From a virus (taxonomy: Duplodnaviria > Caudoviricetes), in IMG/VR virus record IMGVR_UViG_3300028591_000084: a DNA stretch of 64,000 nucleotides; one strand, written 5' to 3'. Shown one piece after another: positions 8,930 through 59,757 of this stretch. The position numbers and the translations under genes are program-made. Positions within the stretch are counted from its first letter, which is position 1. Every line of letters starts with the position of its first letter. The notes under the pieces are model-generated. The model was not told where the DNA came from, ran no database searches, and was given only the letters and a program-made list of their open reading frames with translations.

Positions 8930-8938
8930 ATTCCCCTC

Positions 8939-9027: not shown

Positions 9028-9141
9028 CAACCCGTTAAATCTTTAATATTGATATGAGTAATAAAACATATATTATAAGTAAGATTTGTATTGGTAATAT
9101 AATGCTCGGATTCAGGAGGTCCGGGCTATAATAAAAATAGT

Positions 9142-11057: not shown

Positions 11058-11103
11058 ATAAAAAAAAGAGAGTAGTTTAAACGCTACCCTCTTTAATTTT
11101 TTT

Positions 11104-11427
11104 TTACTTTACCTCAATTAGTTTAGCCTCAGTTCCCTGCTTTTTGGGAACTAGTACTGTCAAAATTCCATTCTCAAGACTGGCTGTAATACCTTCTTGA
11201 TCAACATCAACCGGCAAAGTATACCTGAGATTGAACCTATCTTTGAAGGGGCCAAACTTATCAGAAGACTTAATTAGCAAACAATCACGTTCAGTTTTAA
11301 TCTCTAGCTCATCTTTAGTTACTCCTACAGCTCTAACCTCAATAATAAAATTCTCCTCACACTCTCTTACATCTGTTACCGCACTCTCCTTGAAAGTCGG
11401 AAACATAAAATCATTAAATGCTATCAT
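11104..11427 (-). CDS. Hsp20 / alpha-crystallin small heat shock protein
   Basis: LPVDVD..ITASLENGILTVLVPK signature. Confidence 0.92.
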   Translation of the reverse strand: MIAFNDFMFPTFKESAVTDVRECEENFIIEVRAVGVTKDELEIKTERDCLLIKSSDKFGPFKDRFNLRYTLPVDVDQEGITASLENGILTVLVPKKQGTEAKLIEVK

Positions 11428-11458
11428 AATATTTTATCTCCTTTCTATTAACCTCTAA

Positions 11459-11521
11459 TGCAAAAACTATACCAAAGAAAAAAGAATGACAAAATGACAT
11501 AAAGATGTGTCATACTGTCAG
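11459..11521 (-). promoter_or_regulatory. sigma54-type promoter TGGTATAGTTTTTGCA with upstream TGACA/TGTCA boxes, upstream of hsp20
   Basis: GG-N10-GC spacing at 11459-11474 (minus strand); TGACA at 11487 and 11495, TGTCA at 11508 and 11516. Confidence 0.6.
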
Positions 11522-11524
11522 AAA

Positions 11525-11713
11525 AAAAATTTTAAAGCGCACCAACTCCCATTGCTACACTCTTGCTATCACCTAAGAGCTCCACAATTCCATTAATGCG
11601 CTTTTAGACCAACAACTTACTTCTCTTAGCCTACCGATTCTTGCTATTACCTAAGAACCTAATATGCTTAAAAGATCTTTATTATTGATCTCTCTTACTA
11701 TTCTTATTTATTC
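11525..11713 (-). ncRNA. candidate structured ncRNA with two TCTT-AGGTRATAGC-AAGA hairpins
   Basis: 18-nt repeat at 11561-11578 and 11639-11656; upstream AAAGCCTTATATATG promoter motif; closing stem AAAGCGCA/TGCGCTTT and T run. Confidence 0.5.
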
Positions 11714-11792
11714 ATATATAAGGCTTTAAGACGATTTTAAAGGTAGTTTTTGGCCTATTTTTAACCAAAATTTAAAGAAAAATAAAGAAAAA

Positions 11793-12185
11793 TCAAGGTA
11801 AATCCTTGATTTTCCCCAAAAACTCCTTATCAAAGGCGGACGTTTCGGAAATCGCCCAGATCTTACTTGGAGTTTTTATGTATACTTCTGTGAAATGCTC
11901 GATTTCTCGAGCTGCATCACATACTTTACTTATCTCAACATTTCCGTAAATGAAATGCTTAGATAATGTATCGTGTGCGCTACAAACGCCCTCCAACCAC
12001 TCCTTCTCCCGAAAGAATGGTATTTTTTGGTCCTTACCTGCTTTCTCACAAGCGGCCCTTAGTTTCTCTACTCGGGGCAATCCCTGTTTTATTATCAGGA
12101 TGATTTTTATTACCCCAAGGGACTCGGCCCTCTCCCAAATGGAGATAACCGACTCTCTAAATCTTAATTCTTTTGTTTTTTCCAT
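11793..12185 (-). CDS. hypothetical protein, probably early
   Basis: ORF downstream of CTCCTCAAAGCCTTATATATG motif at 12272-12292. Confidence 0.65.
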   Translation of the reverse strand: MEKTKELRFRESVISIWERAESLGVIKIILIIKQGLPRVEKLRAACEKAGKDQKIPFFREKEWLEGVCSAHDTLSKHFIYGNVEISKVCDAAREIEHFTEVYIKTPSKIWAISETSAFDKEFLGKIKDLP

Positions 12186-12297
12186 AACTTGTTGTTGTTA
12201 GGCTCCTTTTTCTCATTCCTCAGGATCGGAACCTACTAATCCCTTGGAAGATAACTTACTACGTTTCAGTTACATATATAAGGCTTTGAGGAGAAAG

Positions 12298-12379
12298 AAG
12301 AAAGAGAGCTATTCATCACGAACGGCTCCCTCTAAAGTAATAAATAAAAACAAATAGGTATTTATATATGTAAGGTTTT
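12298..12379 (-). ncRNA. candidate sRNA cassette D
   Basis: AAAACCTTACATATA, then about 30 nt U-rich, then AGGGAGCCGTTC-GTGAT-GAATAGCTCTCT hairpin (same core as cassette C). Confidence 0.55.
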
Positions 12380-12482
12380 AATGGTTTAATACAGAGTCCG
12401 GTTAAAAATGAAAAGTAGCGATCTTCACAGACCACTACCTTTTGAGAAGGTCCAGGATTTTACTCCCAGACCCAACCAAGTA

Positions 12483-15257: not shown

Positions 15258-15301
15258 ATATCTTTAAAACTTTTACCACTTTTAAGGGTCTGGCTACTTT
15301 T

Positions 15302-16138
15302 TTAGTGGATTTTTATAAGTTTTACTTTAGCTGCATTATCACCACAATCATTAGTAGCTATAATTTGAGATTTATAGTCATAACCACATCCTTTGATGGC
15401 CTTCCAGACAAGACGCATAACATCTCTCCTCTCCTCTTTAACGGGACAGATCAAAGAAGCAATTCCTCTTCTCGCCAATAAGAAAAAGTTAGCGTAAGCA
15501 ATGAAGATCGGTGAGTTATATTGATCTGGCCCTAACTCTTTTTTCAGAAATTCTTTAGCCTCCTCTCTGGAACTTTCACTAATACCAGTTTCGAGGGAGG
15601 TATCTAGATTTATTTCTTCCGGAACAAGAAGCTTATTCTCTCCTATCTCTTGCATTATTGATCTAAATTCTTCGATTTCTTTTATAATACAAGTCTGATA
15701 AGGAGTCTTTGGAATCATATTTTCCAACTCCCTAAATCTCTTTTCTGTAATTATATGTTGGGATATAGACTCTTTGGCCTGTATCTCCCCTAATCTTACC
15801 GCTATAAGAGATTCAAATTTGGTTGAGGGATAGAATGATATTTTATATAGATTCTCAGAAATAATCTTACCCACCAAATTAAAAGTAACTTTATAGGCAT
15901 AAGATGTGTAATTAGAAGAGAATATAATAAGAAACTCAGGCTCCTTATCCATCTTATCAGGCCAATCAATAGGCGTGTCTGACTGAATAAATCTGATATA
16001 CTGAGAAATTCTCTCAATAAACTCTTTAGAGAATAGATCATACTCACTGGATACTTTAATCAATCCACATCCATCTAGATCTTCTAATTCTCTAGTACCA
16101 ATAAACGGATCATTAACGATATTAAATTTCTTAATCAT
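15302..16138 (-). CDS. hypothetical protein
   Basis: 278 aa ORF with GATCCTTACTATTGAC-ATG motif. Confidence 0.7.
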   Translation of the reverse strand: MIKKFNIVNDPFIGTRELEDLDGCGLIKVSSEYDLFSKEFIERISQYIRFIQSDTPIDWPDKMDKEPEFLIIFSSNYTSYAYKVTFNLVGKIISENLYKISFYPSTKFESLIAVRLGEIQAKESISQHIITEKRFRELENMIPKTPYQTCIIKEIEEFRSIMQEIGENKLLVPEEINLDTSLETGISESSREEAKEFLKKELGPDQYNSPIFIAYANFFLLARRGIASLICPVKEERRDVMRLVWKAIKGCGYDYKSQIIATNDCGDNAAKVKLIKIH

Positions 16139-16154
16139 GTCAATAGTAAGGATC

Positions 16155-16823
16155 TTAGCCGATTAAATTATATCCAGGAATATATCTCGCTGAGTAAGAC
16201 GCTATAAGCATTTTTAGTGAGTTACCACCATGTATTTTGATATATCTATGTGAATCAGCCATAACTATAAAAATATTATCCCAATCGTAAATTTTTTTTA
16301 TGAGGTCACAAAATTGATCTTCATAAGTCGTTCCAATATTATTTTTCAGAACATTAATAAGCGGAGAAGAAGGTTCCACCATCTTCTCAAAAAGTGCTAT
16401 TTTTGTTTCAATAAAAGTTCTGAAAAGTGTTCTATCTATCCCAGGTATTGATAAGAATTTCGCTCCATACGAGCCCCTGTCACTACTGGTAAGATTATTT
16501 TTTAAAAAATTCTCAACATCCGCAAGGATACTGTTGAAAGTTATATATTTTCTTGAATTAGGACTTATAAAAAATTCATAAGAAGGGTAGTATCTTTCAT
16601 AACCAGCTTTTACTATAGCGCTCTGGGTAAAATCAAAGAATTTTTTTATTTTATCCTTCTTCGTTAGATAATCTGAACTTTTTAATAATCCGTCAAGATA
16701 ATCCAAATCAGATTTCCCTATTTTATCAAAATAGTTCTGAATTGAAGGTAATAATAATTGTCTTTTAACATCATTAGAAATGAATCTAACAAATCCAAAG
16801 CCAGTATTAAAAAACAGCATCAT
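16155..16823 (-). CDS. hypothetical protein
   Basis: ORF in tightly overlapping minus-strand operon. Confidence 0.65.
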   Translation of the reverse strand: MMLFFNTGFGFVRFISNDVKRQLLLPSIQNYFDKIGKSDLDYLDGLLKSSDYLTKKDKIKKFFDFTQSAIVKAGYERYYPSYEFFISPNSRKYITFNSILADVENFLKNNLTSSDRGSYGAKFLSIPGIDRTLFRTFIETKIALFEKMVEPSSPLINVLKNNIGTTYEDQFCDLIKKIYDWDNIFIVMADSHRYIKIHGGNSLKMLIASYSARYIPGYNLIG

Positions 16824-17455
16824 ATCTTTACGCAGTCCTTTGTTACTAACTTAAATTCTTCAACTCCCTTTTTATAATACCCATAAGATTGTATGATAAG
16901 AAGGGAGTATCTATCATTCCAAGAAGGATAAGACTCCACATCTTTTTTTAATAGGTTTGTAATTCTATCAAAATCAAAAAATTCATTGATTATACTATCA
17001 CACTCCTCATCAATTTTATTACCAAAGTCACTAGTAAAAACACGCACTTGTCTCTCAGGAATACTTTCGAATTGGAGTGCATGTAGCTGCGATCTTGGTT
17101 TATCATCATATCCATAAGGAAAAAAGTGACCAAAATAATTTAAATTGAATCTTAAAACTCTTTCAATTAGGAATCTTGGTGTCAAAAACTTTAGGGAAGT
17201 GAAAATAGGATCATTATAATAAATAGATAAAAGTATTTCATTCTTAATGATTGCTTCTGATTTCCTTTTCCTTATCTCCTCTACCATCTCACTCAAGAAT
17301 CCAGGATCTTTAAAACGTTTATCTACTATAGGTCGGGGAGATCCGCCCATTAAGCCATATACTAGAGAGCTAATATTTTGTGTTAATAGATAATTACATT
17401 TAACCCCCTCTAGGATAAAACAATAGTTTTGGGTTGGTTTTTTGAAGCATCGCAT
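16820..17455 (-). CDS. hypothetical protein
   Basis: ORF in overlapping operon. Confidence 0.65.
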   Translation of the reverse strand: MRCFKKPTQNYCFILEGVKCNYLLTQNISSLVYGLMGGSPRPIVDKRFKDPGFLSEMVEEIRKRKSEAIIKNEILLSIYYNDPIFTSLKFLTPRFLIERVLRFNLNYFGHFFPYGYDDKPRSQLHALQFESIPERQVRVFTSDFGNKIDEECDSIINEFFDFDRITNLLKKDVESYPSWNDRYSLLIIQSYGYYKKGVEEFKLVTKDCVKI

Positions 17456-18051
17456 AATATATCCTGTTTAAAAATATAGGATGATACAAAAAGGGACATA
17501 ATATTATCCCAGACTGACATAAGCTTGAAGGAGGGATCTGGAAACTTCATTATCTTCAAGAGATTTGAGAACTGTAGATAATTATTAAGTCCTATTATAA
17601 ACTCTTCTTCATTAAAGCTAAAATAGTTTGTAATAATTTCAGACCCGATCATATATGAAAATTTGTCTATTGATAAAAATCTATCATTAAGTTTACCATC
17701 AAGTTGAGTATTTATAAGACTTCCCCTAGTAATCAAATCTGTTCGGGCTATTATATCTAAAAAAGAAGTTATAGAAAATACTTTATATCCCAACAAAGAA
17801 TGGTGAAATTTAATAGAAAAAGTAGTACTTTCCTTAGACAATGAATAGTCCTTTGCTTTTTCAGCCAATTTAATCAGATTCTCACTATTAACTTGGTCAA
17901 AAAAATTTGGACTAACACTAAGGGCTAGTTGTCTCAATCGATTAGACATTATATACCTAAAAGTAATCTTCTTGTTACACGAAAGAAGACAAATATCATC
18001 TGACTTTAGTATAAACATTTTAATAACTTTGAGTCTTGGGCGGTACACCAT
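17410..18051 (-). CDS. hypothetical protein
   Basis: ORF in overlapping operon. Confidence 0.65.
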   Translation of the reverse strand: MVYRPRLKVIKMFILKSDDICLLSCNKKITFRYIMSNRLRQLALSVSPNFFDQVNSENLIKLAEKAKDYSLSKESTTFSIKFHHSLLGYKVFSITSFLDIIARTDLITRGSLINTQLDGKLNDRFLSIDKFSYMIGSEIITNYFSFNEEEFIIGLNNYLQFSNLLKIMKFPDPSFKLMSVWDNIMSLFVSSYIFKQDILCDASKNQPKTIVLS

Positions 18052-18058
18052 TTAATTG

Positions 18059-18577
18059 CTACTTGATACTTACTCCAACCCACTCTAAAAATATCCTCTG
18101 AAAATTCTTGAAAGATACTAAACGACTATTGAAATATATAAATCTTCTCGCTATCTCTTGATCAAACTCATCAGTAAAAATATATTTAGGAAGTAAGCTT
18201 ATCATTTCCTCTTTTTCCTTTCTACACTTCATTGACCTAGAGAACGTTAGATACTTTTCGTAATCACTTCTTGTCAAGATCCTAGCATCGTATTTTAACA
18301 ATCCCATTAAGATCTGCTTCATACTTATCACTTTAGGCCCATGGAATAAAGCAATTTCATTAAAAGAAATCCTCACCTCAGAAATATTTATATCTTCATA
18401 TTTTTTACCTTTATTAAATAGTTTCTCTATGGTATCTGGAAAATCTATTGAATTTCTTTCCATATTTATATTAACAGATCTTATTTTCGTTTTTCTCTGA
18501 TTAAAAATAAAAGTTACTCTATCACAATAATTGTTACCACCCCACACGCCAAGCGATCTTGTCTTAACTAAAATCAT
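18059..18577 (-). CDS. hypothetical protein (tandem paralogue of 18574-19104)
   Basis: Shared MILV start and LP.(Y/F)IFTDEFDQEIARRFI.(F/V)NS.LV. Confidence 0.75.
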   Translation of the reverse strand: MILVKTRSLGVWGGNNYCDRVTFIFNQRKTKIRSVNINMERNSIDFPDTIEKLFNKGKKYEDINISEVRISFNEIALFHGPKVISMKQILMGLLKYDARILTRSDYEKYLTFSRSMKCRKEKEEMISLLPKYIFTDEFDQEIARRFIYFNSRLVSFKNFQRIFLEWVGVSIK

Positions 18578-19104
18578 ATTGTATCTTTCATTATTTTAAT
18601 GAGATTATATCTATAAGAGACATTATTCTCAAGTTTCTTCAGGTCAACTAGAACTGAATTAACGAATATAAATCTTCTTGCTATCTCTTGGTCAAACTCA
18701 TCAGTAAAAATAAACTCTGGTAATCTTCCCTTAGTAAGACTATAAACAGGTCTCCCCATGTTAATTACCATATCATAAGAGGCACTAAAGGTTAGGGTTT
18801 GATAGTTTTCTCTTGATATTGGGTCGACGGTACCTCGACTTATCTTTTTAACTATTTGTTGAGTAGATATTAGTTTATAAGGGGACCAATCTACACAAAG
18901 TCTATTAAAACATACTCTTTGATATGATACTGCTGTCTCCATTTGCAGTATTTCGTGTAAAGTTCTTGGTGGTTTTAGTAAAAAAAGTCTTTTATTAACT
19001 CTTATGTCTTTCAATAGCATATTATTTTGATTGAAAGCAAAAGATAAAGCTAAAATTCGATTTGATCCTTTTGCTTGTACATTAACAACATTAACTAAAA
19101 TCAT
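18574..19104 (-). CDS. hypothetical protein (tandem paralogue of 18059-18577)
   Basis: Shared IFTDEFDQEIARRFI motif. Confidence 0.75.
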   Translation of the reverse strand: MILVNVVNVQAKGSNRILALSFAFNQNNMLLKDIRVNKRLFLLKPPRTLHEILQMETAVSYQRVCFNRLCVDWSPYKLISTQQIVKKISRGTVDPISRENYQTLTFSASYDMVINMGRPVYSLTKGRLPEFIFTDEFDQEIARRFIFVNSVLVDLKKLENNVSYRYNLIKIMKDTI

Positions 19105-19158
19105 AATAAAATAAAAGGATTACACATACTCTTTTATAAGTAAGGTAATCCCGTGTTT

Positions 19159-19350
19159 TTAGATACTTCCTGCAGCTTCAGGGTCGAGTCGGCTAAGAAT
19201 TTTATGTAATCTCCAGATCTCTTTCTTTAATCTTTTATTCTCGTCACTAAGTTTATTAAGTCGATTATTAGTTTTCTCAGTTGTATTAACTAAGCTCTTT
19301 ATATTCTTCTCATTAGTTAAAACCTTCTTCTGCATTGACTCATTGGACAT
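19159..19350 (-). CDS. small coiled-coil protein
   Basis: 63 aa heptad-like ORF with A-rich start region. Confidence 0.6.
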   Translation of the reverse strand: MSNESMQKKVLTNEKNIKSLVNTTEKTNNRLNKLSDENKRLKKEIWRLHKILSRLDPEAAGSI

Positions 19351-19415
19351 TTCCGTTAGTTATTTATTAATTAGAATTGGGGGCCACTAAGAACCCCAGT
19401 TTGTATTTTTCTAAA

Positions 19416-20150
19416 CTAATTGCTTAATTGGAAAAGTTCATTAATACCTAAACACCTATAATTAGTTTCTCCACTATGACCGCAATAAGAATGATGATAA
19501 TGACCATAGAACCACCAAGAAGATCTAACCTCTCTTAATACAAAATCTAAGTAGTTTCTATCATCAAGTATTTTCTTATACGTCTCATACTGAACTTGCG
19601 ATCCTCTAATAAGTGGTGGATCAAAAGATAACGGGGCTTCATGAGATATAATAATATCTACTTTAATTGGAAGATCTGATGTCTTCTTTAAAATCTCTTC
19701 ATCAGGCCACCAAATTCTTTTACTTGACCCTAAAGAGATTAAGTAGTTATTATATTCTCTTCTACTTCTCCCCTTAATAGCATCAGGAAAATCTATATCA
19801 ACACTAACACCACCACCTATTGGATAAATCTTTTTTCCACAGATCTCAACAACTTCATGATCTTTCAAAAGTTTAAGTCGATCATAAGTATGAGTTCCAT
19901 CAAAATAAGCTGGGTCATCATGGTTCCCTCTAATAGCATAGATATTAAGATTATTCTCTTCTAAGGTTTTCTTTATCTTATCATACAAAACATCAAGACT
20001 ATTAGGGCCACCAAATCCTACACCAAAGTCCCCACAAATAATAATATCAGACTCCGATATCTTATTACGGGCCTTTAAAATCACATTTACTAAGTAATTC
20101 AATTCACCATGAATATCACCACAAAATAATAAACCTCTAATATTATCCAT
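19416..20150 (-). CDS. calcineurin-like metallophosphoesterase
   Basis: GDIHG, CGDFG, RGNHD, ISHEAP, GHYH. Confidence 0.9.
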   Translation of the reverse strand: MDNIRGLLFCGDIHGELNYLVNVILKARNKISESDIIICGDFGVGFGGPNSLDVLYDKIKKTLEENNLNIYAIRGNHDDPAYFDGTHTYDRLKLLKDHEVVEICGKKIYPIGGGVSVDIDFPDAIKGRSRREYNNYLISLGSSKRIWWPDEEILKKTSDLPIKVDIIISHEAPLSFDPPLIRGSQVQYETYKKILDDRNYLDFVLREVRSSWWFYGHYHHSYCGHSGETNYRCLGINELFQLSN

Positions 20151-20220
20151 ATATAGGTAAGGAATTTACCTGAGAATTCCAGCAAAATCCTTATTATTGA
20201 CATTAAACAAATTAAATTTT

Positions 20221-20901
20221 ATGGGATTTAGAGATTTTTATAAAGCAGAACATCCTTATGGTATGTCTGCTCTTGATGATTATGCGAAGAAGAGTGTGAT
20301 TACTCCTTATATCACAAGAGAGAGTAAAGATCGCATGGTTCAAGTTGATGTATTTTCTGAGCTGATGGATAATAGAATTATGTTTCTCGGAGATGAGATT
20401 AATTCAGATGTTTGTTGTATTGCCCTCAGTCAGCTTGTATATCTTCACGCAGTAAATCCAACCGCCCCAATAACAGTTTATATCATGAGCCCTGGGGGTG
20501 AAGTATACTCAGGGATGGCACTTTATGATACTATGGAGCTTATTAAAAAAGATTGTGTAATTAATACAACTTGCCTTGGGCTGGCCGCTAGTATGGGCAG
20601 TATATTAATGCAAGGAGGTACACGAGGATATAGAAGCGCATTACCACATAGCAGAATTATGGTTCACTCTGCTAGTACCGGGGCAGAACGCATAACTTAT
20701 CCTGACCTTAGAATTATGGCAGATGAAACAGAACAGCTGAATAACGAATTGCTTAGAATTCTTAGTGAATCTAGTGGTAAACCTTTTGAGGAAGTAGAGA
20801 AAGATTGTCAAAGGGATTGCTGGGTTAGGGCAGATGATGCGCTACCTGGAAAATATGGAGAATTTGGATTGATAGATAAAATTATAGATAAATTAAATTG
20901 A
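20221..20901 (+). CDS. clpP: ATP-dependent Clp protease proteolytic subunit
   Basis: DVFSELMDNRIMFLG, YIMSPGG, GLAASMGS (Ser), RIMVH (His), RD (Asp), GLIDKI; ATG at 20221 preferred over TTG at 20197. Confidence 0.93.
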   Translation: MGFRDFYKAEHPYGMSALDDYAKKSVITPYITRESKDRMVQVDVFSELMDNRIMFLGDEINSDVCCIALSQLVYLHAVNPTAPITVYIMSPGGEVYSGMALYDTMELIKKDCVINTTCLGLAASMGSILMQGGTRGYRSALPHSRIMVHSASTGAERITYPDLRIMADETEQLNNELLRILSESSGKPFEEVEKDCQRDCWVRADDALPGKYGEFGLIDKIIDKLN

Positions 20902-21025
20902 TTTTACATTTGTTTTAGCTTTACTTATTGTGAGGAAAGTAGTGGTCTGTGAAGATCGCTACTTTTCATTTTTAACCGGACTCTGTATTAGGGTCTTTGA
21001 GTTTCTAGTGGGACGAAAGTTCGGC

Positions 21026-21535
21026 GCGGAATCTTTGGTTTTGTAATCTCGGGAAAAATAAACAAACCTGACTTGCTTAAAGGCAGGAGTTAGGAGCGTT
21101 TCCCCGAAGACATAACTCTGGAATGAAACGACTGATTAAAGGAGTGAAATGAAGGATTAAATTAAAAGTTGAGACGGGAGCCCTAATTCTAAAAGAATTA
21201 GCCCTCCACACCACCCGTCTCACTCAATTGGCGCTATCGCTCCAACTGAGGTAAATTATATCAATAAAATCTCTATATTTCCAAAGGAAATTTGGTGTGG
21301 TGGGCTATTCTATACTTGGCGAATCTTATGATGACATGGCGCACTTTAGGGCGACAGGGCAGAATAAGACAATGAGATAGTATAGAATAGGGCTTGTTTT
21401 TAAAGATTTTATATTAAAATTAGTAAAATTAAAATTTGTCATTTTTTTAAAATTTATGTAGTATATAAGGGATAACGGAAAAATTATCTCAAAAATGACA
21501 AAAAATACTGATAAATTCAACCTAAATCCTGACAT
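21026..21535. other. structured intergenic region, candidate replication origin or ncRNA
   Basis: Several long hairpins (TGAGACGGG/CCCGTCTCA, CTATTCTATACT/AGTATAGAATAG), AT-rich tract at about 21395-21460, inverted TTTGTCATTTT/AAAATGACAAA, near the coding-strand switch. Confidence 0.45.
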
Positions 21536-21583
21536 GTGGGAAATACTCCCAACTGCAGAAATTTTAAGCTAAATTTATATAGT

Positions 21584-23653
21584 ATGAAAAAAGAGAGAAT
21601 CATTGTACCAGAAGGAATTAGGTACTTAAGTGATTGGGAAGATTATAAGTTAAGTAATTTTTCATTTCCACACATTCTTAACAAGGTTCTAACAGGGTGT
21701 GGATTTACTGAATACTGCCTAACTAATAATCAACCCCTAGTGTTAGGATCTCCAAGAAGATTTTTATTAGAAAACAAAGAAGATCAACATCCAGGTGAGG
21801 TTTACTATGCTAGAAACGACTTTGAAGAGGTTGTTGATTATGAGCTAGATCTTTCTGTTGATGATCTTAGAGCTTGTAATAAAATTGAAAGAGCTCAAAA
21901 TCTTGAGTTATTCAAAAAAAGAGCAGAAGATTTTAAGGATAATCTTAATAATTATCTGAACAATTGCTTGATAACAGGTAAAATTCCAAAAATTCTCGTT
22001 ACCTATGACTCCTTTAAACTGGTAAAGGAAGTATTAAAGGATCGAGGCTTTCTATATGATTTTCAAGTAGTTATCGATGAATTTCAGTCAATTTTTATCG
22101 ATTCCAGATTTAAAGCAGGTACAGAATTAGAGTTACTCTATCATCTTCAGGATCTTCAAAAAATTTGTTTTGTATCTGCTACTCCAATGTTGGATGTATA
22201 TTTGGAGAAGCTTGATGAATTTAAAGATCTGCCATATTTCGAATTAGATTGGAAAACTGCTGATCCTGGCAGGGTAATTAATCCGATGCTGAATGTCAAA
22301 TTTGTTAGATCCTTGAATGAAGAGGCAGAGTCAGTTGTTCAGTCCTATCTTAAAGGTAAATTTGATACAAGATTAGATGCTAAAACCGGCGGATTTATAG
22401 AATCAACAGAGGCAGTTATCTTTATGAATTCTGTATCAGCTGTTTGCCAGGTTATACGAACAAATTTTCTTCACATTGATCAGTGTAATGTCTTATGTGC
22501 TAAGACTGCCGAGAATGAGAAAAAAGTGAGAGCAGCATTTAATCAAGTCTTAAAGAAGGAGCATAAGAATGAGTATAATATCCCAAGGGTTCCATCAAAA
22601 ATGCCTGTAATAGGTTCGATACCTAAGAAGGGAGAACGACACAAAATGTTTACTCTCTGCACTAGAACTGTCTATCTCGGAGCAGATTTTTATTCAACTT
22701 GTGCTAGAACTTTTATCTTTAGTGATGCTAATATTGAGTGTTTGGCAGTTGATATTAGTATGGATCTTGAACAGATTCTTGGTAGACAAAGACTTACTGA
22801 AAATTTATGGCGAGACGAGGCAAGTTTATTTGTAAGAACTATTAAGGATGATTATAAGATTCCCAGAGAGGAGTTTGATGCTTGGCTGACAGAGAAAGTT
22901 AGAAAAACAAATAGTTTATTGGAAATTTATAACGAAGTAACAGGTGGTTTAAAAAAGCACGACCTTGCAGACAAGTTCCTTGATGCTAATTTGATTAAAC
23001 ACTATAGAAAAGATTATATAGGCGTCAATAAACATGCAGGGAATGATCTCCTACCACAGTTTAATAATCTCGTCTTAGTGGCAGAACAAAGAGCATTTGA
23101 TATTCAGCAAATAGATTATGCAGATCGATTCAACGTTTTCAGTGCATTAAAGAAAGAAGATTTTCAGAGTACAAAAGAAGAGGTGATTGAGTTTGCTAGA
23201 GAATTTAACAGTATTAAAAATGTCTCTCAGAAATTGAAATGTCTTGTTGAATTTGGTGAAAAGGAGGATATTACCCCAGAAGATATCAAGAAGTTATTCA
23301 ACCTAATCCCTGGTAAGTATAAGGATTACTATACGCTCCTAGGGCCGGACAGAATAAGGGCCAATTCTTATCACGAGTCTGAACTTAAGAAAGAGTGGAT
23401 AAAGCTTCATACTGTTGATGGTACTGTTAGCCTTAAAACTAGAATTCTTGAAACTTTTGAGGTTGGCGAAAGATACTCAAAAGAAGATATTAAAGAGGCA
23501 CTGAGAGAAATTTATAAAAATTTAAATTATAACAAAACGCCAAAAGCTACGGATCTTAGTGAGTGGTATATTCTTAAGAGAGTTTATATTTCTGAGCGAA
23601 AGAAAAATGGCTTTGAGATTTTAGGTTTAAAAGAAGATGTTATACCTGATTAA
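21584..23653 (+). CDS. divergent SF2 helicase-like protein (possible origin-binding/replication initiator)
   Basis: LTGCGFT (degenerate Walker A), VIDEFQ, FVSAT, YLGADF, QILGRQR; ATG 21584 likely start. Confidence 0.6.
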   Translation: MKKERIIVPEGIRYLSDWEDYKLSNFSFPHILNKVLTGCGFTEYCLTNNQPLVLGSPRRFLLENKEDQHPGEVYYARNDFEEVVDYELDLSVDDLRACNKIERAQNLELFKKRAEDFKDNLNNYLNNCLITGKIPKILVTYDSFKLVKEVLKDRGFLYDFQVVIDEFQSIFIDSRFKAGTELELLYHLQDLQKICFVSATPMLDVYLEKLDEFKDLPYFELDWKTADPGRVINPMLNVKFVRSLNEEAESVVQSYLKGKFDTRLDAKTGGFIESTEAVIFMNSVSAVCQVIRTNFLHIDQCNVLCAKTAENEKKVRAAFNQVLKKEHKNEYNIPRVPSKMPVIGSIPKKGERHKMFTLCTRTVYLGADFYSTCARTFIFSDANIECLAVDISMDLEQILGRQRLTENLWRDEASLFVRTIKDDYKIPREEFDAWLTEKVRKTNSLLEIYNEVTGGLKKHDLADKFLDANLIKHYRKDYIGVNKHAGNDLLPQFNNLVLVAEQRAFDIQQIDYADRFNVFSALKKEDFQSTKEEVIEFAREFNSIKNVSQKLKCLVEFGEKEDITPEDIKKLFNLIPGKYKDYYTLLGPDRIRANSYHESELKKEWIKLHTVDGTVSLKTRILETFEVGERYSKEDIKEALREIYKNLNYNKTPKATDLSEWYILKRVYISERKKNGFEILGLKEDVIPD

Positions 23654-24323
23654 GGCTGCTTATTTGGATGATAATGGATTACCTAAGTCAATATTAAAAT
23701 TTGGTTACTCAGACAATTGGATTAAGCGCTACACATCATATCGTTCTTATCAGCCAGGGGTCAGGGTACTTAAGTTATATGATGGTGGTAATTTAGATGA
23801 TGAAGCAAGAGTAAAGGAATATTTGAAATTATTTTGTATTTATGGTTCAGAGTGGTTTATTGATTGTGAAGTTGTAATTGAGTTTTTCAAGTTCAATGAT
23901 ACTTTAGATAAGCTACGTGAATCAACCAAATATTCCTTACCTTTGTCTTCATTAGATCTTAATCCTCCTGATTATTTTCTGATTAATTTTGTCATCGATT
24001 CTTTTTATTCTATGGAGAGTAAAAAGTTTTGTCTTCTTCGTTCTAGACTATTTGGTGAAGAATTACGTGGTCATTCCTTTTCAGAACAGCGTGACATAAT
24101 TTTCAAGAGGTATAGTTGTAATGAGTCTGACTATAGAAATTGGTTTATGAAGAATAGCCCTAAGTCGCCTAGTAAAGAATTATTAAGTATGGTAAAGGAA
24201 ATACGCGAGGAGTCTAATGAAGTTAGGAGATTAGCGTTATTAAGGGAGTTCAAATCAAACCATAGTGAGGAAGATTATCAATCTCTCTTGTTCTATTTAC
24301 CTCGAGAATTAAAAACCCCTTAA
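23637..24323 (+). CDS. GIY-YIG/T5orf172-like nuclease-domain protein
   Basis: LYLIK...LKFGYS...KRY..Y...E......GSEWF pattern. Confidence 0.55.
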   Translation: MLYLIKAAYLDDNGLPKSILKFGYSDNWIKRYTSYRSYQPGVRVLKLYDGGNLDDEARVKEYLKLFCIYGSEWFIDCEVVIEFFKFNDTLDKLRESTKYSLPLSSLDLNPPDYFLINFVIDSFYSMESKKFCLLRSRLFGEELRGHSFSEQRDIIFKRYSCNESDYRNWFMKNSPKSPSKELLSMVKEIREESNEVRRLALLREFKSNHSEEDYQSLLFYLPRELKTP

Positions 24324-24532
24324 AACCCTTATAAATGACTAATAATAATATCCCAGATACCTCTAAGTGGTTTATTAGACTAATAGAGCTAAAGATCTCG
24401 AAGCTAAAATCTGGGCGAATCGAAGAGATAGGAAAAGGATTGCGAAAAACTTCGTCAGAGGAAAAGTAGCCCCTTAGTACTATTTCATTAGAGGAGTATA
24501 ATAAAAGTTTTTACGAACTTATATTTAAACAC

Positions 24533-37000: not shown

Positions 37001-38515
37001 AGTGTTATACTACTTCCGAAAGTCTAAAGAATTGTATGGAGGTTTTAATCACTTCCCTGGGAATTAATACCACTATAGATGAGACGTCTGATAGAGAAGG
37101 ACAAGGATGGTGTATTAATCTGTGTAATGAAAGAGCCGTGGAAGGAGTCTCTCGGTGGAAGAACAATAGCCAATATTTTAAGGTAATTGACATCGAGGAG
37201 GTTGAATACCAAGATGAAGTTTATTGTGTTGAGCGTGACAATTCTAGTGATCCATATTTCACTCTTCCTTCTGGATTAATCACACATAATTGTAGATTGA
37301 AAAATAAAGTACAGACTAAAGAGTTCAATTTCACAAATGGTAATATGGGAGTACAAACAGGAAGTAAGTCTGTTATTACTCTGAATTTAAGCAGAATTGT
37401 TCAGGATTGGGCAAAAAATTTTGAGGATCTTCCTAAACAGTTAGATGGTTCATTCAGTGATTATCTTAATGAAATCCTTGAGAGAGTCTATAAGTATCAT
37501 ATTGCCTACAACGAACTTCTTTGGGATATGTATGATTCTGGACTGTTACCTGTATATAAAGCTGGATTTATAAACCTAGATAAGCAATATTTAACTATTG
37601 GTATTAACGGTCTTAATCAAGCAGCAGAGTTTCTCGGTCTTCAGTGTAATGATAATGAAGATTATAAGCGCTTTTGTCAGTTTATATTTGGTACAATAAA
37701 AGATGCTAATACAAATAAGAACGGAAAGTATTTTGGTCATACAGTTACACTTAATACCGAATGTGTTCCCGCTGAATCTTTAGCTATTAAGAACTACAAC
37801 TGGGATAAAGAAGATGGATTAGAACCAATGTCCATCTAAAACCTCACTTAATTGACTCGAAACTCCCTATGGCTATGGCTATGGGACAACGAGGGGCAAG
37901 CAATAACAATAATGTTATGTGCAGCCTGAGAGACTAAATAGAGAGGGCTTCTGTTGTGAAATAGAAGTATGCAATAGTCCGAACTCTATGGTAATATAGA
38001 GAGTATGATAGAAATATTATACCGCTTACTAATAAAATTAATTAACCTTATTAGTAAGTCTTCTCCCTGTACAACGGGGGAGAGCGTAACAGAATGATTG
38101 GGTTCCAGAAGATACTAATCTTTATGCATCTTATATTTATAAACCAAATGATAAGTCCCTGTCTATTCTTGAAAAGTTAACACTTCACGGAAAAGACTAT
38201 ATTGGGGAGTATCTTGATGGCGGAAGTGCAGCTCATATTAATATCGATCATCACTTTAGCAAGGAACAGTATAACAAGCTACTCCATTTTATTGCTGAAG
38301 TTGGTTGTCAGTATTTCACATTTAATTGTGTGAATTCTGAGTGTGAAGACTGTGGGTATATTAGTAAAGAGCCATTTGATGTTTGCCCGAAGTGTGGTAG
38401 CCATAATATTAATTATTATGATAGAATTATCGGCTATTTGACAAAGATTAAAAACTGGTCAAGCGGGCGACAGATTGAACAAAAGACTCGTGTTTATAGT
38501 AACGATATAGAATAA
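34054..38515 (+). CDS. nrdD: anaerobic ribonucleoside-triphosphate reductase, spliced (exons 34054-37819 and 38097-38515) with two inteins; about 717 aa mature
   Basis: ATP cone MKVIKRNG; IYKHDE; APY-CCSI and SSC-CRLKN after intein removal; ECVPAE; CxxC...CxxC; RIIGYL glycyl-radical motif in exon 2. Confidence 0.95.
34609..35820 (+). mobile_element. Intein 1 in NrdD with LAGLIDADG endonuclease (404 aa), N-terminal residue Thr
   Basis: TYSAKEVI start, VTDNHP block B, LGYFVGFFIGDG and ILCGLIDSDG, IYDI...LVHN/C end. Confidence 0.9.
36472..37290 (+). mobile_element. Intein 2 in NrdD (273 aa) with eroded LAGLIDADG domain
   Basis: CFTKDTKV start, MTDNH block B, VYCVE...ITHN/C end; GAFLRDG and GILDGYSAGE remnants. 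Confidence 0.92.
37820..38096 (+). mobile_element. Group I intron without ORF in nrdD (277 nt)
   Basis: P1 AGAUGGAU/GUCCAUCU with U-G wobble; P10 CCAAU/AUUGG; P7 GACUA/UAGUC; terminal G38096; splicing restores DG-Y-WVPED. Confidence 0.95.
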
Positions 38516-47099: not shown

Positions 47100-47680
47100 T
47101 GGATAATCCGAGATATAAAGGAATTCTTATTGATAGGAATAACGTGCCAATTCCTGGAACTGACTTTTTTGGTTGGAAGTCTAGATCCTTAGCAGTAACG
47201 GTTGTAATTTTAAGTAAAACTAGATCAGGATTGTATGAAGCCCTCGTTGAAAAGCGCGGCCCTGGTTGTCCTGATTACGTAGGATCCTGGTGTTGTCCTT
47301 GTGGTTATTTAGGCTGGGATGAAACACTCAAGGAAGCAGCAGTAAGGGAGGTGTATGAAGAAACTGGTCTAGAGCTCAAAGAAGAGGAGCTATCATTACT
47401 TGGAATTGATGATGATCCAGAAGCGAATAGACAAAACGTTACAGTTAGGTTTTATTGTGAAATAGATGAGAGGAGAATTTTTCCAGTCATTAATCACGCC
47501 TTGTATAAGAAATCAGACAGGGGAGGTGAAGAAGATGAAGTTGACGAATTAACTCTTGTTCCATTATTTTACGTTAGAGTCAACGAGAATAGTTTTGCTT
47601 TTGGCCATAACAAAATTATTGAAGAGGCTTTTTTGAAGATAAAAAATGAAGAAACAATAAAAAAGAAGGTAGGGAATTAA
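47096..47680 (+). CDS. Nudix hydrolase (ADP-ribose pyrophosphatase-like)
   Basis: Nudix box GYLGWDETLKEAAVREVYEETGL; FAFGH tail. Confidence 0.9.
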   Translation: MMDNPRYKGILIDRNNVPIPGTDFFGWKSRSLAVTVVILSKTRSGLYEALVEKRGPGCPDYVGSWCCPCGYLGWDETLKEAAVREVYEETGLELKEEELSLLGIDDDPEANRQNVTVRFYCEIDERRIFPVINHALYKKSDRGGEEDEVDELTLVPLFYVRVNENSFAFGHNKIIEEAFLKIKNEETIKKKVGN

Positions 47681-47752
47681 TCCTTACCTTTATTTTTTTT
47701 TATTTAGAGTAAAAAAAGAGACTACTTAATCTAGTAATCTCTTGGCATGTTT

Positions 47753-48019
47753 CAGGTTATGTTATCTCGAAGGCTTTTTATCCCCCGAATCAGGCAGTTC
47801 TCATTTCCCGCCTGCTCAGCATACATATTCATCCACTAGGGATGGCGGACACTCTTGGGTAGATTATATTCTTTATTCCTAAAGTTTCACTACCTATGCG
47901 TTACGATACTAGACCATATTACAAACCTAGTTATCTCGGTATTAGCAAATTTCACAGCCTCCACCGATATTGCCCGCTGGTTATCTTAAGTATTGCTACC
48001 TAAGACGGCAAACCAAATT
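47753..48019 (-). mobile_element. Group I intron without ORF located in a 3' UTR (about 267 nt), homologous to the polA intron
   Basis: P1 GGUAA/UUGCC; blocks shared with polA intron (CGGGCAA, CGGTGGA, TAATACCG, GCATAGG.AGTGAA, ATATAATCT.CCCA.GAGTGTCCG.CATCC, GATAAAAAGC); P10 GUUU/AAAC. Confidence 0.85.
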
Positions 48020-48024
48020 ACCTA

Positions 48025-48924
48025 CTACTCATAAATATATTTCCCCTCCAGTAAGTTATATAGGTCAATATAATCAATCATACAATTATGAGCAGCATCC
48101 TTATCTCTACTACTAAGTCCCCATCTGCCAGAATGAGTCCCTATGTAAACCAAATCATCAAGGTTTTTCCAATCACTAATCGCCCCAGATACAGTTCTCT
48201 CCTTAGGAATTCCTTCTCGCATCTGTTTCATAACGACACAAGCTTGTCTTGGAATTCTGAGATATGTGGTTACTGAGTGTGCAATATACTCAAGTGCTGC
48301 CTCTGAACTTTCCCTATTTCCAAACGAAGGGATCAGCTCAGGTGCAGGCATAATCACATAAATTTTCTGTGGAGCAAAAGAAGCGAGCTTGTCCCAGACA
48401 TCGAATCGTGGTTTCAGATCAAATACGGCTCTAGGCATTATGTCTGGCTTTCCATTACTTTCCCAAGATTCATAAAGACAATCAAGGACGTCACAAATAA
48501 TAGCTCTTTTAACCTTTCTTTCTTCTTGTTCTGCTGGTGTTTCTTCTTTTTTCCAGGGTGCAGATTTTTCACTAGCAGGTTTCCAACCACTTGAAGATGA
48601 TCCACTTCCCCAGCCACTGAATCCTCCAGCAGGACTCCAAGGTTTCCTATCCTCTGCTTTTTCCCAAGGAGCCTTACTTGATCCGGTCCCTGATCCGGTC
48701 CCTGATGATCCCCAGCTAAACGGGTTAGGAGTAGTTTCTGCCATTTCTTTTTTTACTAAATTTTCTTGTTGTTCCATGAGGTTGTAAAGCTTAACTTCCT
48801 CTTCATCAACCTCCTCGTCAATTAAATAATCGTCATCATCATCGTCTTCCGTTGGATGCCCCGTATAATCAGGCGGAAGATATGATTTTCTTTCACAATC
48901 ACTATTATCCATTTGTTGATTCAA
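48025..48924 (-). CDS. disordered N-terminus + degenerate HAD/polynucleotide 3'-phosphatase-like domain
   Basis: IICDVLDCL; VYIG..SG...S.RD..AAHNCMIDY; acidic and Gly/Ser/Trp-rich N-terminus. Confidence 0.55.
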   Translation of the reverse strand: MNQQMDNSDCERKSYLPPDYTGHPTEDDDDDDYLIDEEVDEEEVKLYNLMEQQENLVKKEMAETTPNPFSWGSSGTGSGTGSSKAPWEKAEDRKPWSPAGGFSGWGSGSSSSGWKPASEKSAPWKKEETPAEQEERKVKRAIICDVLDCLYESWESNGKPDIMPRAVFDLKPRFDVWDKLASFAPQKIYVIMPAPELIPSFGNRESSEAALEYIAHSVTTYLRIPRQACVVMKQMREGIPKERTVSGAISDWKNLDDLVYIGTHSGRWGLSSRDKDAAHNCMIDYIDLYNLLEGKYIYE

Positions 48925-54251: not shown

Positions 54252-56934
54252 ATGAACATGAAAGAAATTAATTCTGTAAAAACAAATGAAGAAGTGATTG
54301 AGTTTCTTCCATTTCCAGAATGTGTTAGGCGTCGAGTAGGTGTTTATCTTGGCGGCAATGATCAAGAGGCTGTTAATACGGCTTTTAGAGAGATTGTCGA
54401 TAATGCCTCAGATGAAATAGCAGCTGGATATGGAGATACAATTTTATTAAGTACAAATTTTAATGGATTTTGTTTTGTAGCAGATAATGGTAGAGGTATT
54501 CCAATCTCAATGAGCAGAGATGTTCCTGAGAAGACGAGTGCTTATCTATCAATATCAGAACTACACACAGGATCAAAATTTACCAGTACCCAAGGAGTAG
54601 CAAGAGTTGGTCTTAATGGCTTAGGATCCTCAGCTACTTCTGCCTGTTCAACGGTCTATTGCTTATTGTCCAGGATAACTGAGGATAATTATAATAGATC
54701 TATTCCTGATGTAAAAACTGTTTGGGAAAAGGCAGGACCACGTTCTAAGAGAGATCTATATTATATTGTCATTATGGAGAAGGGATATAGAACGTATGAA
54801 AGTGCTGGTTCACTTAGAGATATTGAGAAGCTCTTGTTTGGAAAGGATAAAGAATATAAGATTCCCTCCGGCATGAGTACTCTGGTATTCTTTAAACCTG
54901 ATCCTGAAATTTTTGAGTCTATTAATCCCGCCATTCCTGTTAAGAATCTCCAATATTTTATGTTAATCCAGGAGAAATTCTTTAAGAGGAAAGTTAATGT
55001 TGTAATTGATGGCGTTAATATTAAAAATGATTTCAAGCCTTATCGATTTGAGGTAACAAAGATCATAACACCAAAGGACACAAGTATGAACAAAGAAGTT
55101 GGTATTTATATGTCCTTTGAGGCTGATCCTGAATTGAAAACTAAAGAAGTTACTGGATCAGTTAATGGTTTGGATTGTACAGGCCATCATCTTAGTATAG
55201 CAGAGTCAATTTATAAGGCGGCACTTAAAGATCAGTTCAAGATTAAACATTCTTATCTTGAACCTGGTATGAAATTAAATGTCATAATTCTGGCTAATGA
55301 GACGATCTTTGACTCTCAGAATAAAAGTAGAGTTAAGAGTATAGCCAAAGTCAAATCTACAGACTTCACTGAGGTAGTAAAGGATGTTGAGAAGATTTTT
55401 AGAAAATACTCTGACTATTGGGAGACTCACGTTCAGAAGTTACAATATCTGGCAGATTCTATGAGAAATATCGGTGCTATTGAAAAGGCACAGAAAATCA
55501 TAGATAGTGCCGGAGGTAATGGTATGTATCGAACAAAAGGAGATATGATAGCTGGTTTTGCTGATGCTACTGCTCCTGCAAATGATAGATGGGCTTGTGA
55601 GTGCTTTATTACTGAGGGGCTTAGTCCTTGCGGCTCTTTGAAGGCTGCTAGAAAAGCTATAGATGTAAAATATAGATGTTGTGTTCCTTTACGTGGAAAA
55701 GTGCTTGATACAAGTGATAGTACTGTCGATAAGATGATGGAAAATAAGGAATTCTTTACGATCTTTTCTCTTATGGGACTAGGTATATCAGCAAATAACG
55801 TTATCAAAGACGCTAAAGATCCGGAAGAGGCATACGAAATAATTAAAAAGAAGTCACGTTATGGCAAATTAATTATAGCTACAGATAAAACGAAAGTTTG
55901 TGTCTGAGGGTGTAGAGATACACCTAAGGAATCCTATTGTTGCGAGGAACTCTGGTTAGGTCTTAGGTACTAAAGAGTTGTAGTTAACTCTTAGTAACAA
56001 TCTTAAGAATACAGACAATTCGCTTTGTTATAAGATTAGTCTATTAATTCTATAACAAGACAACGACTATCCCTCTATGGGAGTAAGACAGCAAGTCAAT
56101 AATGGCTGTTTGAAAGATAGGATACCCAAACGTTTAAGGCGTGGGTAAAAATATAGTCTGATCTGTATGGAGACATGCAGGAGTTCATAAGAGAACCGGG
56201 AAGTAGTGACGACACTTCTTGAACAAAATGGCCGATGAAGATGGGTGGCAACAGGTTGCCCAGGGATATAGAAATATATTTCGTAATATTGCATTAAAAG
56301 CGGGGAACTCCTGTTAGGCATAAGGTACCAAAGTGTAACAACCCTTATGATAGGGACAATCCGCAGTAGAAATACTTCAACGACTATCTCAGTGATGAGA
56401 GTAGGGTGGCAAGTCTGTATAATGGCCATTCGAAAGATGCAATATCTGACCACGTAATGGTGAAGATAAAAATATAGTCTGAGCACATGGGAAACTATGT
56501 GGAGAAGAAATTCTCGTACTAAGTGTAGACGACTTAGTGTAAACAAAACTGTATCAATTCAGAAAGGTATATTATATACTATTTTGAAGTTTGCTAGATT
56601 TATGATAGATTTTGGTTTGGTTTATATTGCCGAATCTCCAATATTTGAACAAGGAGGTAAGTATTTCTATCCTAGTGATCCTAGAATACCTGGCAGTCAA
56701 TTCTGTGTAGGAATGGATCCTAATAAGAAATTTAGACGTTTTAAAGGCCTTGGTGCTCTTGAACAAGAAGATGTATATTATTCGTTCTACAATGAGCAAA
56801 CAAGACGTCTAATAAGAGTAACTCCAGAGTATGCTGATTATGCCATGGGCTTAGTAGAGGACATAAATAAAAGAAAGAAGTTACTGTTTGATAAAGACAT
56901 ATTAACTAATCCATATAATTTCACAGATCTTTAA
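54252..56934 (+). CDS. gyrB: type IIA topoisomerase ATPase/TOPRIM subunit (GyrB/ParE-like), spliced (exons 54252-55886, 56231-56246, 56552-56934; about 677 aa)
   Basis: EIVDNASDE, DNGRGIP, LHTGSKF, GLNGLG, TEGLS, PLRGK; ATD-ADEDG-LSI after splicing; RFKGLG. Confidence 0.93.
55887..56230 (+). mobile_element. Group I intron 1 in gyrB (344 nt, no ORF)
   Basis: P1 CAGAU/GUCUG; P7 GACUA/UAGUC; terminal G56230. Confidence 0.9.
56247..56551 (+). mobile_element. Group I intron 2 in gyrB (305 nt, no ORF)
   Basis: P1 UGGGU/GCCCA; P7 GACUA/UAGUC; terminal G56551; frame restored with 56552 exon. Confidence 0.9.
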
Positions 56935-58538: not shown

Positions 58539-59077
58539 TATATAATAGCGGTTTAGAATCAGTTATTGAAGCTATCTATTTGGACGAGAAACTTGTACCG
58601 AAGATAGGAAAAGCAAATATTGAAGTTAATCCCAGTGAGGCCTCTTATGCTGTTGGGAAAACTATTATCTTAACCAATAATAAGTGTACGAATGTTGATA
58701 TCTTAATTAGAAATGGAAATAAAGTTATTTCTAGAGTAAAAGGATATGATGATGACGTTCAGTTTCAGCCTTATATCATTCGCCCTAATTTCAATATTTT
58801 CTGGAATGGCGAAGTTTATGAGTGTCCCAGAGAATTTAGTGGAGACCTTGATGATATTATGGAGTGGTTAGGGGCCCAAGATAAATTTCCAGTTAATTAT
58901 GACGAAAAGGTGTCTTTATGTTTCCCCAAGGTAACAGGAATATTAAAGGATGTCTTAGTTGGGCCAGAAGGAAATCTCACTTCATTAGGGTGGCTATTAC
59001 ATCAGGTGGGTGTTAATGTTGGGAAAACTTTTCTCGATATGGACTTATTAAAAACAAAAAAAATAATAAAAAGGTAG
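58535..59077 (+). CDS. hypothetical protein
   Basis: ATGA overlap; ends in repeated terminator. Confidence 0.65.
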   Translation: MIYNSGLESVIEAIYLDEKLVPKIGKANIEVNPSEASYAVGKTIILTNNKCTNVDILIRNGNKVISRVKGYDDDVQFQPYIIRPNFNIFWNGEVYECPREFSGDLDDIMEWLGAQDKFPVNYDEKVSLCFPKVTGILKDVLVGPEGNLTSLGWLLHQVGVNVGKTFLDMDLLKTKKIIKR

Positions 59078-59103
59078 GGAATTAATCCTTACCTTTATTT
59101 TTT

Positions 59104-59757
59104 TTAATCTTTGAAGTTTGAGACAACAATACTTCTAGCCTGCTTAATTGTTTTTACTACTCTTTTCCAATAATCATCTCCGCCAAGTCTTTCTAAGATT
59201 ATTCTACTTGACCTAATATTGATAATGATGATACAATCTTCTTCAGGATCCTCAAAATAGATTTCTCCACGATTTGGAGTCATAGACACGATATTTAATC
59301 TCTCCAAAAACTTTATAGATTTTTCAGAGATTAGGTGTCCTATGAAACTATTTGTAAGATAAGATCTTGGTCTGTAATGTTCTCTAAAATCCTCATACGT
59401 AATCTTTTTTATTAAAAATAGACGTACTGTTGGCAGAAAACTATTCTCCTTAAAATATTGAAAGGGCCTTCCTTCCAGATATTCTCGACCAAAAAGTCTG
59501 TTATTAATACTAATTCTACCACCATAAATTTTGCCAGCTCGAATACTAAGAACAAGATACCTACTATTATCTATACCTCTAACTGTTACTGAAAGGAAGT
59601 ATTTTTTTGGGATATAATGTACCTCAAAGTTACCAGGAAGATTACAGAAGATATTTGCCAATTCTATACAACACTTAGCAAAATCAGATTCTAAGTTATG
59701 ATCAAGAATTATATCTTTAAGTAATTCCTTAAATTTCTGTATTGTTAGTGGCATCAA
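59104..59757 (-). CDS. hypothetical protein
   Basis: ORF in operon. Confidence 0.65.
   Translation of the reverse strand: MMPLTIQKFKELLKDIILDHNLESDFAKCCIELANIFCNLPGNFEVHYIPKKYFLSVTVRGIDNSRYLVLSIRAGKIYGGRISINNRLFGREYLEGRPFQYFKENSFLPTVRLFLIKKITYEDFREHYRPRSYLTNSFIGHLISEKSIKFLERLNIVSMTPNRGEIYFEDPEEDCIIIINIRSSRIILERLGGDDYWKRVVKTIKQARSIVVSNFKD

Follow-up and report, generated by a model that had tools for sequence, protein, structure and literature searches.

The window analysed here is a 64,000-nt stretch of viral DNA (Duplodnaviria; Caudoviricetes; IMG/VR record IMGVR_UViG_3300028591_000084). Its minus strand carries a three-gene operon for proteins of 505, 181 and 295 aa, and the 295-aa gene, which comes last and is translationally coupled to the gene before it, belongs to no Pfam family. 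The identical 295-aa protein (P0001) is present on a 311,995-bp contig. Right behind the stop codons of this gene lies an element with the hallmarks of a group I intron, called the UTR intron below. The features of the locus, in window coordinates, are these:

48025–48912, minus strand: 295-aa gene
48027–48025 and 48024–48022, minus strand: first and second TAG at the end of the 295-aa ORF
48020–48027, minus strand: the tandem stops TAG TAG followed by GT, the 5′ exon end, as read from the sequence
47753–48019, minus strand: UTR intron, an ORF-less group I intron of 267 nt with IA-like architecture
47706–47752, minus strand: 3′ exon, consisting of AAACAUGCC and then an intrinsic terminator
47743–47716, minus strand: stem of the terminator, 11 bp, plus a U run

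The end of the 295-aa ORF, read along the minus strand, is ...TAT GAG TAG TAG GT, which gives the protein the C-terminus ...GKYIYE. The intron starts 5 nt past the tandem stop and ends 9 nt before the hairpin of the operon terminator. Its 5′ splice site falls after U48020, the U of a U-G wobble, and its last base is G47753, the terminal G. The sequence directly 3′ of the 267 nt reads AAACATGCC and runs into the terminator hairpin, in keeping with an original prediction, made from the sequence alone, that the 3′ exon is only a short sequence plus a terminator (AAACAUGCC and then the 11-bp stem). No open frame crosses the intron junction in any of three frames, by frame computation or by direct reading. 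Splicing out the intron alters no protein and shortens the 3′ UTR from ~310 nt to ~45 nt.

The original prediction that the intron interrupts no gene is upheld by homologues of the upstream protein, which stop at the same residue. Ninety-seven homologues were found, 95 full-length and 2 short ones that match only the middle of the protein. All but 4 of the 95 have a C-terminal ...Y-x-Y-E or a Y/F/W variant of it, and most of the closer homologues finish ...Y-x-Y-E like the window protein. This agreement speaks against a missing exon, read-through or a recent stop, and the C-terminus of the 295-aa protein, to judge from its homologues, is native. A recent stop in the upstream ORF had been one candidate explanation and is ruled out by the shared C-termini, and the homologues give no sign of an ORF that reads through the junction. 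Another candidate, in which the 295-aa ORF is a homing endonuclease lodged in the P1 loop (as in phage PJN02) with the true 5′ exon farther upstream, was rejected because the homologues share its length and occur in non-intron contexts, the protein matches no nuclease family and the gene is translationally coupled. In relatives the homologous gene directly precedes another gene or a terminator without an intron there, and the loci of five relatives lack an intron at the equivalent site.

The elements of the predicted secondary structure of the UTR intron, all on the minus strand, are as follows:

48022–48018 with 48011–48007: P1, GGU|AA with UUGCC, including the U-G wobble at the splice site
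47752–47749 with 48013–48010: P10, AAAC with GUUU
48007–48013: internal guide sequence 5′-GUUUGCC, which pairs with the ligated exons GGU|AAAC
48006–47983: P2
47977–47971 with 47851–47845: P3
47967–47962: P4, with P5 and P6 also present
47899–47895 with 47823–47819: P7
47894–47890 with 47862–47858: P7.1
47844–47840 with 47834–47830: P8
47814–47808 with 47797–47791: P9
47789–47783 with 47773–47766: P9.1

The helices follow the order P3-P4-P5-P6-P7-(P7.1)-P3′-P8-P7′-P9 with a P3/P7 pseudoknot, and between the guide GUUUGCC and the ligated exons GGU|AAAC, P1 and P10 together amount to 7 bp. The UTR intron forms 57 of the 58 pairs of a covariation-supported family consensus. At alignment columns conserved at 85% or more it deviates 4 times, and 2 of these deviations compensate each other, A-U replacing U-A in P9. 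In J8/7 a single base is out of the ordinary, the segment reading GAAUAUG where the consensus has GAAAAUG. The claim of an intact group I intron thus holds up on a full-length profile match, the 57 of 58 pairs and the retention of P1, P10 and the terminal G. The UTR intron shows no decay: an intron that splits the DNA polymerase gene (polA) of the same phage, and that has to splice, deviates at 8 conserved columns against the 4 of the UTR intron. The element is a full-length, undecayed group I intron. The available strains are only ~1% divergent, so intactness cannot tell selection from recency. A search of positions 47650–48120 with Rfam found no ligand aptamer.

Assigning the UTR intron to a family required a profile of its own. 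The Rfam model RF00028 gives no match to it in a 471-nt slice, either at the gathering threshold or at E ≤ 10, and also misses the polA intron of the window. An nhmmer profile was built from 22 family members, all from outside the window. This profile matches the UTR intron at profile positions 2–251 with 159.8 bits (E 1.7e-48), above the 121.6 bits of the polA intron, and it has no further match elsewhere in the window. For the structure, 24 compact members were aligned (alignment A2), an RNAalifold consensus was derived (P2, P3, P4, P5, P6, P7.1, P8, P9 and P9.1), and P7 was added as the pseudoknot partner. Across the 24 sequences 96.3% of the cells are paired and 41 of the 58 pairs show compensatory change; none of 500 shuffles reached the observed values, and slid controls were 31–42% paired. 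The placement of P7.1 between P7 and P3′ is the layout of phage IA-type introns, and P7, the helix predicted to bind guanosine, is invariant as GCAUA/UAUGC in all 24 members. The family core motifs, searched as a two-block pattern, occur at no fewer than 77 IMG/VR loci, and of 36 compact members the majority are flanked by long open frames at either end. Two loci (L074 and L017) were considered as further members without exons and set aside because they carry endonuclease genes or split polA. On this sequence evidence the UTR intron belongs to an IA-like intron family that is widespread in phages and escapes Rfam.

A sensitive blastn search of the region returned matches in three phages of Gram-positive bacteria, and the nearest known members are ~74–80% identical to the UTR intron. 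In the Alicyclobacillus phage MMB025 the intron separates the two parts of a DNA polymerase gene and has an endonuclease ORF in its P5 loop. The intron of the Bacillus phage vB_BsuS_PJN02 splits the Walker A motif of a helicase (GGT|AAA TCT) and holds two ORFs in its P1 loop, and that of the Clostridium phage phiCD211 comes first, without annotation, in a tandem pair within the tape-measure gene, a type of gene in which introns of B. cereus prophages have also been described (PMC2504315). By profile and by covarying structure these introns are of the same RNA family as the UTR intron, and they share with it the guide core GCC opposite GGU, the invariant P7 GCAUA/UAUGC and the P9.1 loop AUAAAAAG. 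They differ from it in that they split coding sequence and their splicing restores a protein, whereas splicing of the UTR intron restores nothing. Guides and exons covary across the family: AUUUGCC goes with GGU|AAAU in PJN02, UUUUGGC with GCU|GAAA in phiCD211 and UUUAGCC with GGU|UAAG at polA. An ENA gut metagenome contig (L095, positions 2696–2967) has an intron of the same family in an AAA+ ATPase gene, at the Walker A motif. Its P7 (GCGUA/UACGC) and P3 (GCGAGUG/CAUUCGC) are compensatory versions of two helices that vary little or not at all among the other 24 members.

Some public records reflect this gap in detection. The GenBank entry for PJN02 (L001, OM634653.1, 3680–8845) presents the helicase halves as two genes, each called "RecD-like helicase", and marks no intron between them, and the phiCD211 record (L002) annotates only the second of the two tandem tape-measure introns. 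Because RF00028 misses the whole family, many split phage genes are probably mis-annotated.

Four further group I introns of the same phage serve as internal comparisons for the UTR intron:

5430–5682, plus strand: polA intron, same family, splitting the family-A DNA polymerase gene after ...CAGAGGT
37820–38096, plus strand: nrdD intron, group I, 277 nt, with an Rfam score of 27.6 bits in local search only
55879–56501, plus strand: two tandem introns detected by Rfam in a GyrB/Toprim-type large-subunit topoisomerase gene (55887–56551 in the comparison with intron-less contigs)

At polA, joining ...GAG GT|T AAG GCT... would give ...ISSAEV|KAAGFSS..., with motif B downstream. A spliced full-length PolA identical to that of this strain was searched for and not found, the best match being 72%. 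The polA intron, too, forms 57 of the 58 consensus pairs. The original prediction described the UTR intron as a close homologue of this intron. Common lineage is supported; a close copy is not, since identity between the two is 65% when counted over aligned columns and 71.5% when they are aligned as a pair. They differ on both sides of 22 consensus pairs with pairing preserved, which is the compensatory pattern that the original prediction had proposed looking for. The two tandem introns lie in the type II topoisomerase gene, not in polA.

Evidence for splicing comes from contigs that lack exactly these 267 nt, which were found by looking up the exact 295-aa protein in public assemblies. One contig (L082, JGI 3300037675) is 100% identical to window positions 51005–48018 and then continues with 47752–47699. 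The same junction occurs in a strain of 98.9% identity (L084, JGI 3300024337) and in a 24.8-kb contig (L097, JGI 3300024345) that is 100% identical over the compared lengths. In all three the spliced junction reads ...GAGTAGTAGGT|AAACATGCC and joins 48018/20 to 47752, the predicted position within a 2-nt AA ambiguity. Our initial reading of L082 and L084 was an empty-site DNA allele left by a recent clean insertion. It was dropped because the topoisomerase introns, too, are missing from contigs of two of these datasets, and the nrdD intron from one of them. In contigs L100 and L101, from 3300024345 and 3300037675, both topoisomerase introns are absent and a 16-nt micro-exon is kept (L100:1670–1685 and L101:108–123, without mismatches to the window), which yields one 675-aa ORF and supports double splicing of the topoisomerase introns. 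The 24.8-kb contig of 3300024345 (L097, L099) is without both the UTR intron and the nrdD intron; the latter is precisely absent, so that NrdD becomes a single 1394-aa ORF in which two inteins are kept. The simplest reading of the intron-less JGI contigs is that they represent spliced RNA, which would mean that the UTR intron is spliced accurately in vivo, presumably by autocatalysis, together with as many as three other group I introns of this phage.

One could instead take these contigs as DNA of intron-free strains, the difference being a presence/absence polymorphism and not splicing. The RNA origin of the datasets is deduced from the contigs rather than from library records, and the 24.8-kb contig and the window are set apart by a 16-kb segment, with the join at a short repeat, as might be seen in a genomic variant. 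We nevertheless regard this explanation as very improbable. It would require one dataset to be without four introns in three genes at once and a second to be without three, with zero mismatches in the segments flanking the introns and a total of three differences elsewhere in the 24.8-kb contig. Furthermore, contigs start and stop at operon limits in several datasets, and the fifteenth-ranked contig of one assembly is just 24.8 kb long. Operon-sized contigs of 1.05, 1.45 and 3.0 kb recur across datasets, and three of them share an end base. In the DNA run SRR8436538, by contrast, the topoisomerase introns are present, as is the polA intron, which lies in a contig of 52.5 kb. Its 11,430-nt contig spans two repeated terminator hairpins (47639–47700 and 59047–59105), a length that fits only if the 267-nt UTR intron is present.

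Two features of the public assemblies deserve mention in their own right. Logan contigs from two runs break at or near exon-intron boundaries (the end of L083 at window position 48025 and the start of L102 at 56552), as a mixture of spliced and unspliced forms in those runs would produce; the L083 break, oddly, falls 7 nt short of the expected branch point. In addition, a terminator-like hairpin with the core AAAGGTAAGGATTAATTCCCTACCTTT is repeated at operon ends (47639–47700, 59047–59105 and 2191–2224), and this element is the apparent break point of several public assemblies.

The mechanism proposed for the locus is as follows. The UTR intron would be transcribed together with the operon mRNA and fold so that its guide GUUUGCC grips the exon end GGU through the U-G wobble. 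A guanosine would then attack after U48020, and the released exon end would attack after the terminal G47753, giving the product ...UAGUAGGU|AAACAUGCC-terminator. The element would have arrived by ectopic integration at GGU|AAAC, a mimic of the GGU|AAA targets of its close relatives, and its ribosome-free position right behind a stop codon would make it costless to the phage. Members with the guide core UUGCC do occupy GGT|AAA sites, two of them in the Walker A motifs of ATPase genes, as illustrated by the PJN02 helicase (GGT|AAA) and the AAA+ ATPase of L095 (GGT|AAAACT). For the T4 td intron, a ribosome halting right at the intron start aids intron folding. By analogy, the position of the UTR intron, 5 nt behind a stop codon, may be a permissive niche. 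We consider it probable that the element is a selfish IA-like group I intron, predicted to be catalytically competent, that reached the 3′ UTR of the last gene of the operon by ectopic integration at a target look-alike. No near-identical donor copy was found in IMG/VR, where one chance match aside nothing exceeds ~77–80% identity, so the arrival route is one that we infer and is unproven. A search with the exon end returned one chance match in metagenomes and nothing in IMG/VR.

The intron might also be a stranded relic. The 295-aa gene would once have been followed directly by an AAA+ ATPase gene whose Walker A codons (GGT|AAA ACN) housed the intron, and the ATPase exons would since have been lost and replaced by the terminator and a convergent PARG-Nudix cassette. 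Some of the relatives lend this idea substance. In L004, L090, L094 and L095/L096 the stop of the homologous gene coincides with the start of an AAA+ ATPase gene (TATGAGTAAATGG), and in L095/L096 the ATPase gene holds a same-family intron at GTG|KTV (118.7 bits) ~290 nt downstream. A homologue of that ATPase is missing from the window, which retains ATGAGTA at the same place. A tblastx comparison of the genes downstream of the ATPase in the relatives with the window gave no match. Against this scenario, both deletions would have had to end within 3–4 nt of the intron and spare just P1 and P10, and no other ATPase remnant is left in the 5 nt upstream or in the 9 nt downstream to the terminator. 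Moreover, the L095 intron is 69% identical to the UTR intron and thus no nearer to it than other members are (65–77%), and in L091–L093 the homologous gene is likewise followed by a terminator, with no AAA+ gene of the L095 type. Stranding after loss of a host gene is on these grounds rather unlikely, and ectopic integration is put ahead of it.

A third possibility is domestication, with splicing itself, a structured unspliced 3′ UTR or an excised and possibly circular RNA serving the phage, for example in the stability or timing of the operon mRNA. The ribozyme is wholly intact even though no protein needs splicing, and it is apparently spliced in two strains that are 1.1% apart. There is also precedent in the allosteric group I ribozyme of a C. 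difficile 5′-UTR mRNA, in which a c-di-GMP-II aptamer is combined with an intron and which has a regulatory role (PMC3984707). Like the UTR intron, it is a bacterial-type group I ribozyme in untranslated mRNA. It differs in lying in a 5′ leader and having an aptamer, and in that a ribosome-binding site is created or lost depending on which splice site it uses; the UTR intron lies in a 3′ UTR, has no aptamer and has no visible effect on translation signals. Its RNA is that of an ordinary family member with no extra domain, no relative conserves an intron at this gene, and the divergence at hand is too small to reveal purifying selection. We judge domestication to be distinctly unlikely. Both ideas had appeared in the original prediction, which suggested either a role for the RNA itself or a record of ectopic reverse-splicing transposition. 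The first found no evidence here, and the second gains circumstantial support from the 7-bp guide, the GGT|AAA sites of the relatives and a contig end at a second gene of the window:

6729–7322, minus strand: 197-aa gene, its stop TAA directly followed by a terminator
6729–6736, minus strand: possible second target, ...UUUGGU|AA (stop UAA), just before the terminator

The far end of the 24.8-kb contig (L103) crosses the 197-aa gene to its last bases, ...ATTGTTTGGT, and then matches, at 100% identity, nucleotides 1–119 of the UTR intron, AATTTGGTTTGCC... (L103:3590–3711 corresponds to window 48022–47901 and follows window 6729). The window DNA at the end of the 197-aa gene reads GGT|AAGAGAGG... 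without an intron. The 5′ junction in L103 is GTTTGGT|AATTTGG, and its 3′ partner would be CATAACCTG|AAGAGAGG. The two parts are joined sense to sense, after GGU and exactly at the 5′ end of the intron, and in the normal mRNA this GGU is followed by AAG, which is able to pair with the UUU of the guide. The source of this junction could be an RNA formed by reverse splicing, a DNA variant in the minority that has gained a transposed copy, or a chimera that arose by cDNA template switching or assembly at the 5-nt microhomology GGTAA. The exact match to the intron boundary together with the specificity of the guide favors a ribozyme-guided event, as seen in a single contig end, although the same contig has a further join, at a short promoter-like repeat.

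Reverse splicing has been considered for other group I introns. In vivo, the Tetrahymena intron is reported to have reverse-spliced into the 23S rRNA of E. coli (Roman and Woodson, as cited in PMC3984707 and PMC2504315), ectopic spread has been inferred for group I introns of fungal rDNA (PMC1299323), and direct evidence for the full pathway from RNA to DNA is lacking (PMC3984707). In such cases 4–7 nt of complementarity to the guide pick the target, and both GGU|AAAC and GGU|AAG fit the guide of the UTR intron. The rRNA cases are experimental or rest on phylogenetic inference, whereas here the argument is built from one contig end and the resemblance of sites. Taken a step further, the UTR intron may be transposing now at the RNA level through guide-directed reverse splicing into ribosome-free GGU|AA sites between stop codon and terminator, with the L103 end as a natural product or a fixed DNA copy and the resident copy as an earlier event of the same kind. 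We offer this reading tentatively, as a possibility that falls well short of probable.

Bacterial and phage group I introns have been described in genes for proteins, tRNAs and rRNAs, in which the host depends on splicing (PMC3984707). The UTR intron is ordinary as an RNA; what is unusual is its position and its apparent splicing in vivo with nothing to restore. The surprise is tempered by the fact that intron-dense jumbo phages are documented. The gut "Jug" phages have ~18 group I introns per genome, with splicing established by metatranscriptome mapping (PMC12880540). Like the present ~312 kb phage, they combine many ORF-less group I introns with inteins in replication genes, and splicing is visible in community RNA data for them and, by inference, for this phage. 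The introns in that study fragment genes, none being described there outside coding sequence (PMC12880540), and the comparison does not imply that this phage belongs to the same clade. An intact intron in a 3′ UTR bears on whether ribozyme activity is maintained for the sake of the element itself, free of the confounding effect of host selection, and on how introns without endonucleases gain new sites. The resident site and the possible second site both match the guide and both lie between a stop codon and a terminator, which makes the long-proposed, undemonstrated reverse-splicing route testable in a natural system.

The JGI contig that ends in L103 shows one more rearrangement relative to the window. 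At a short promoter-like repeat, GTGTCTAATATAAATTC (L103:1940–1957), it joins window position ~8383 to 24515 and so skips ~16 kb that include GmrSD-like and ClpB-like genes, as a result of either a real island polymorphism or chimeric assembly.
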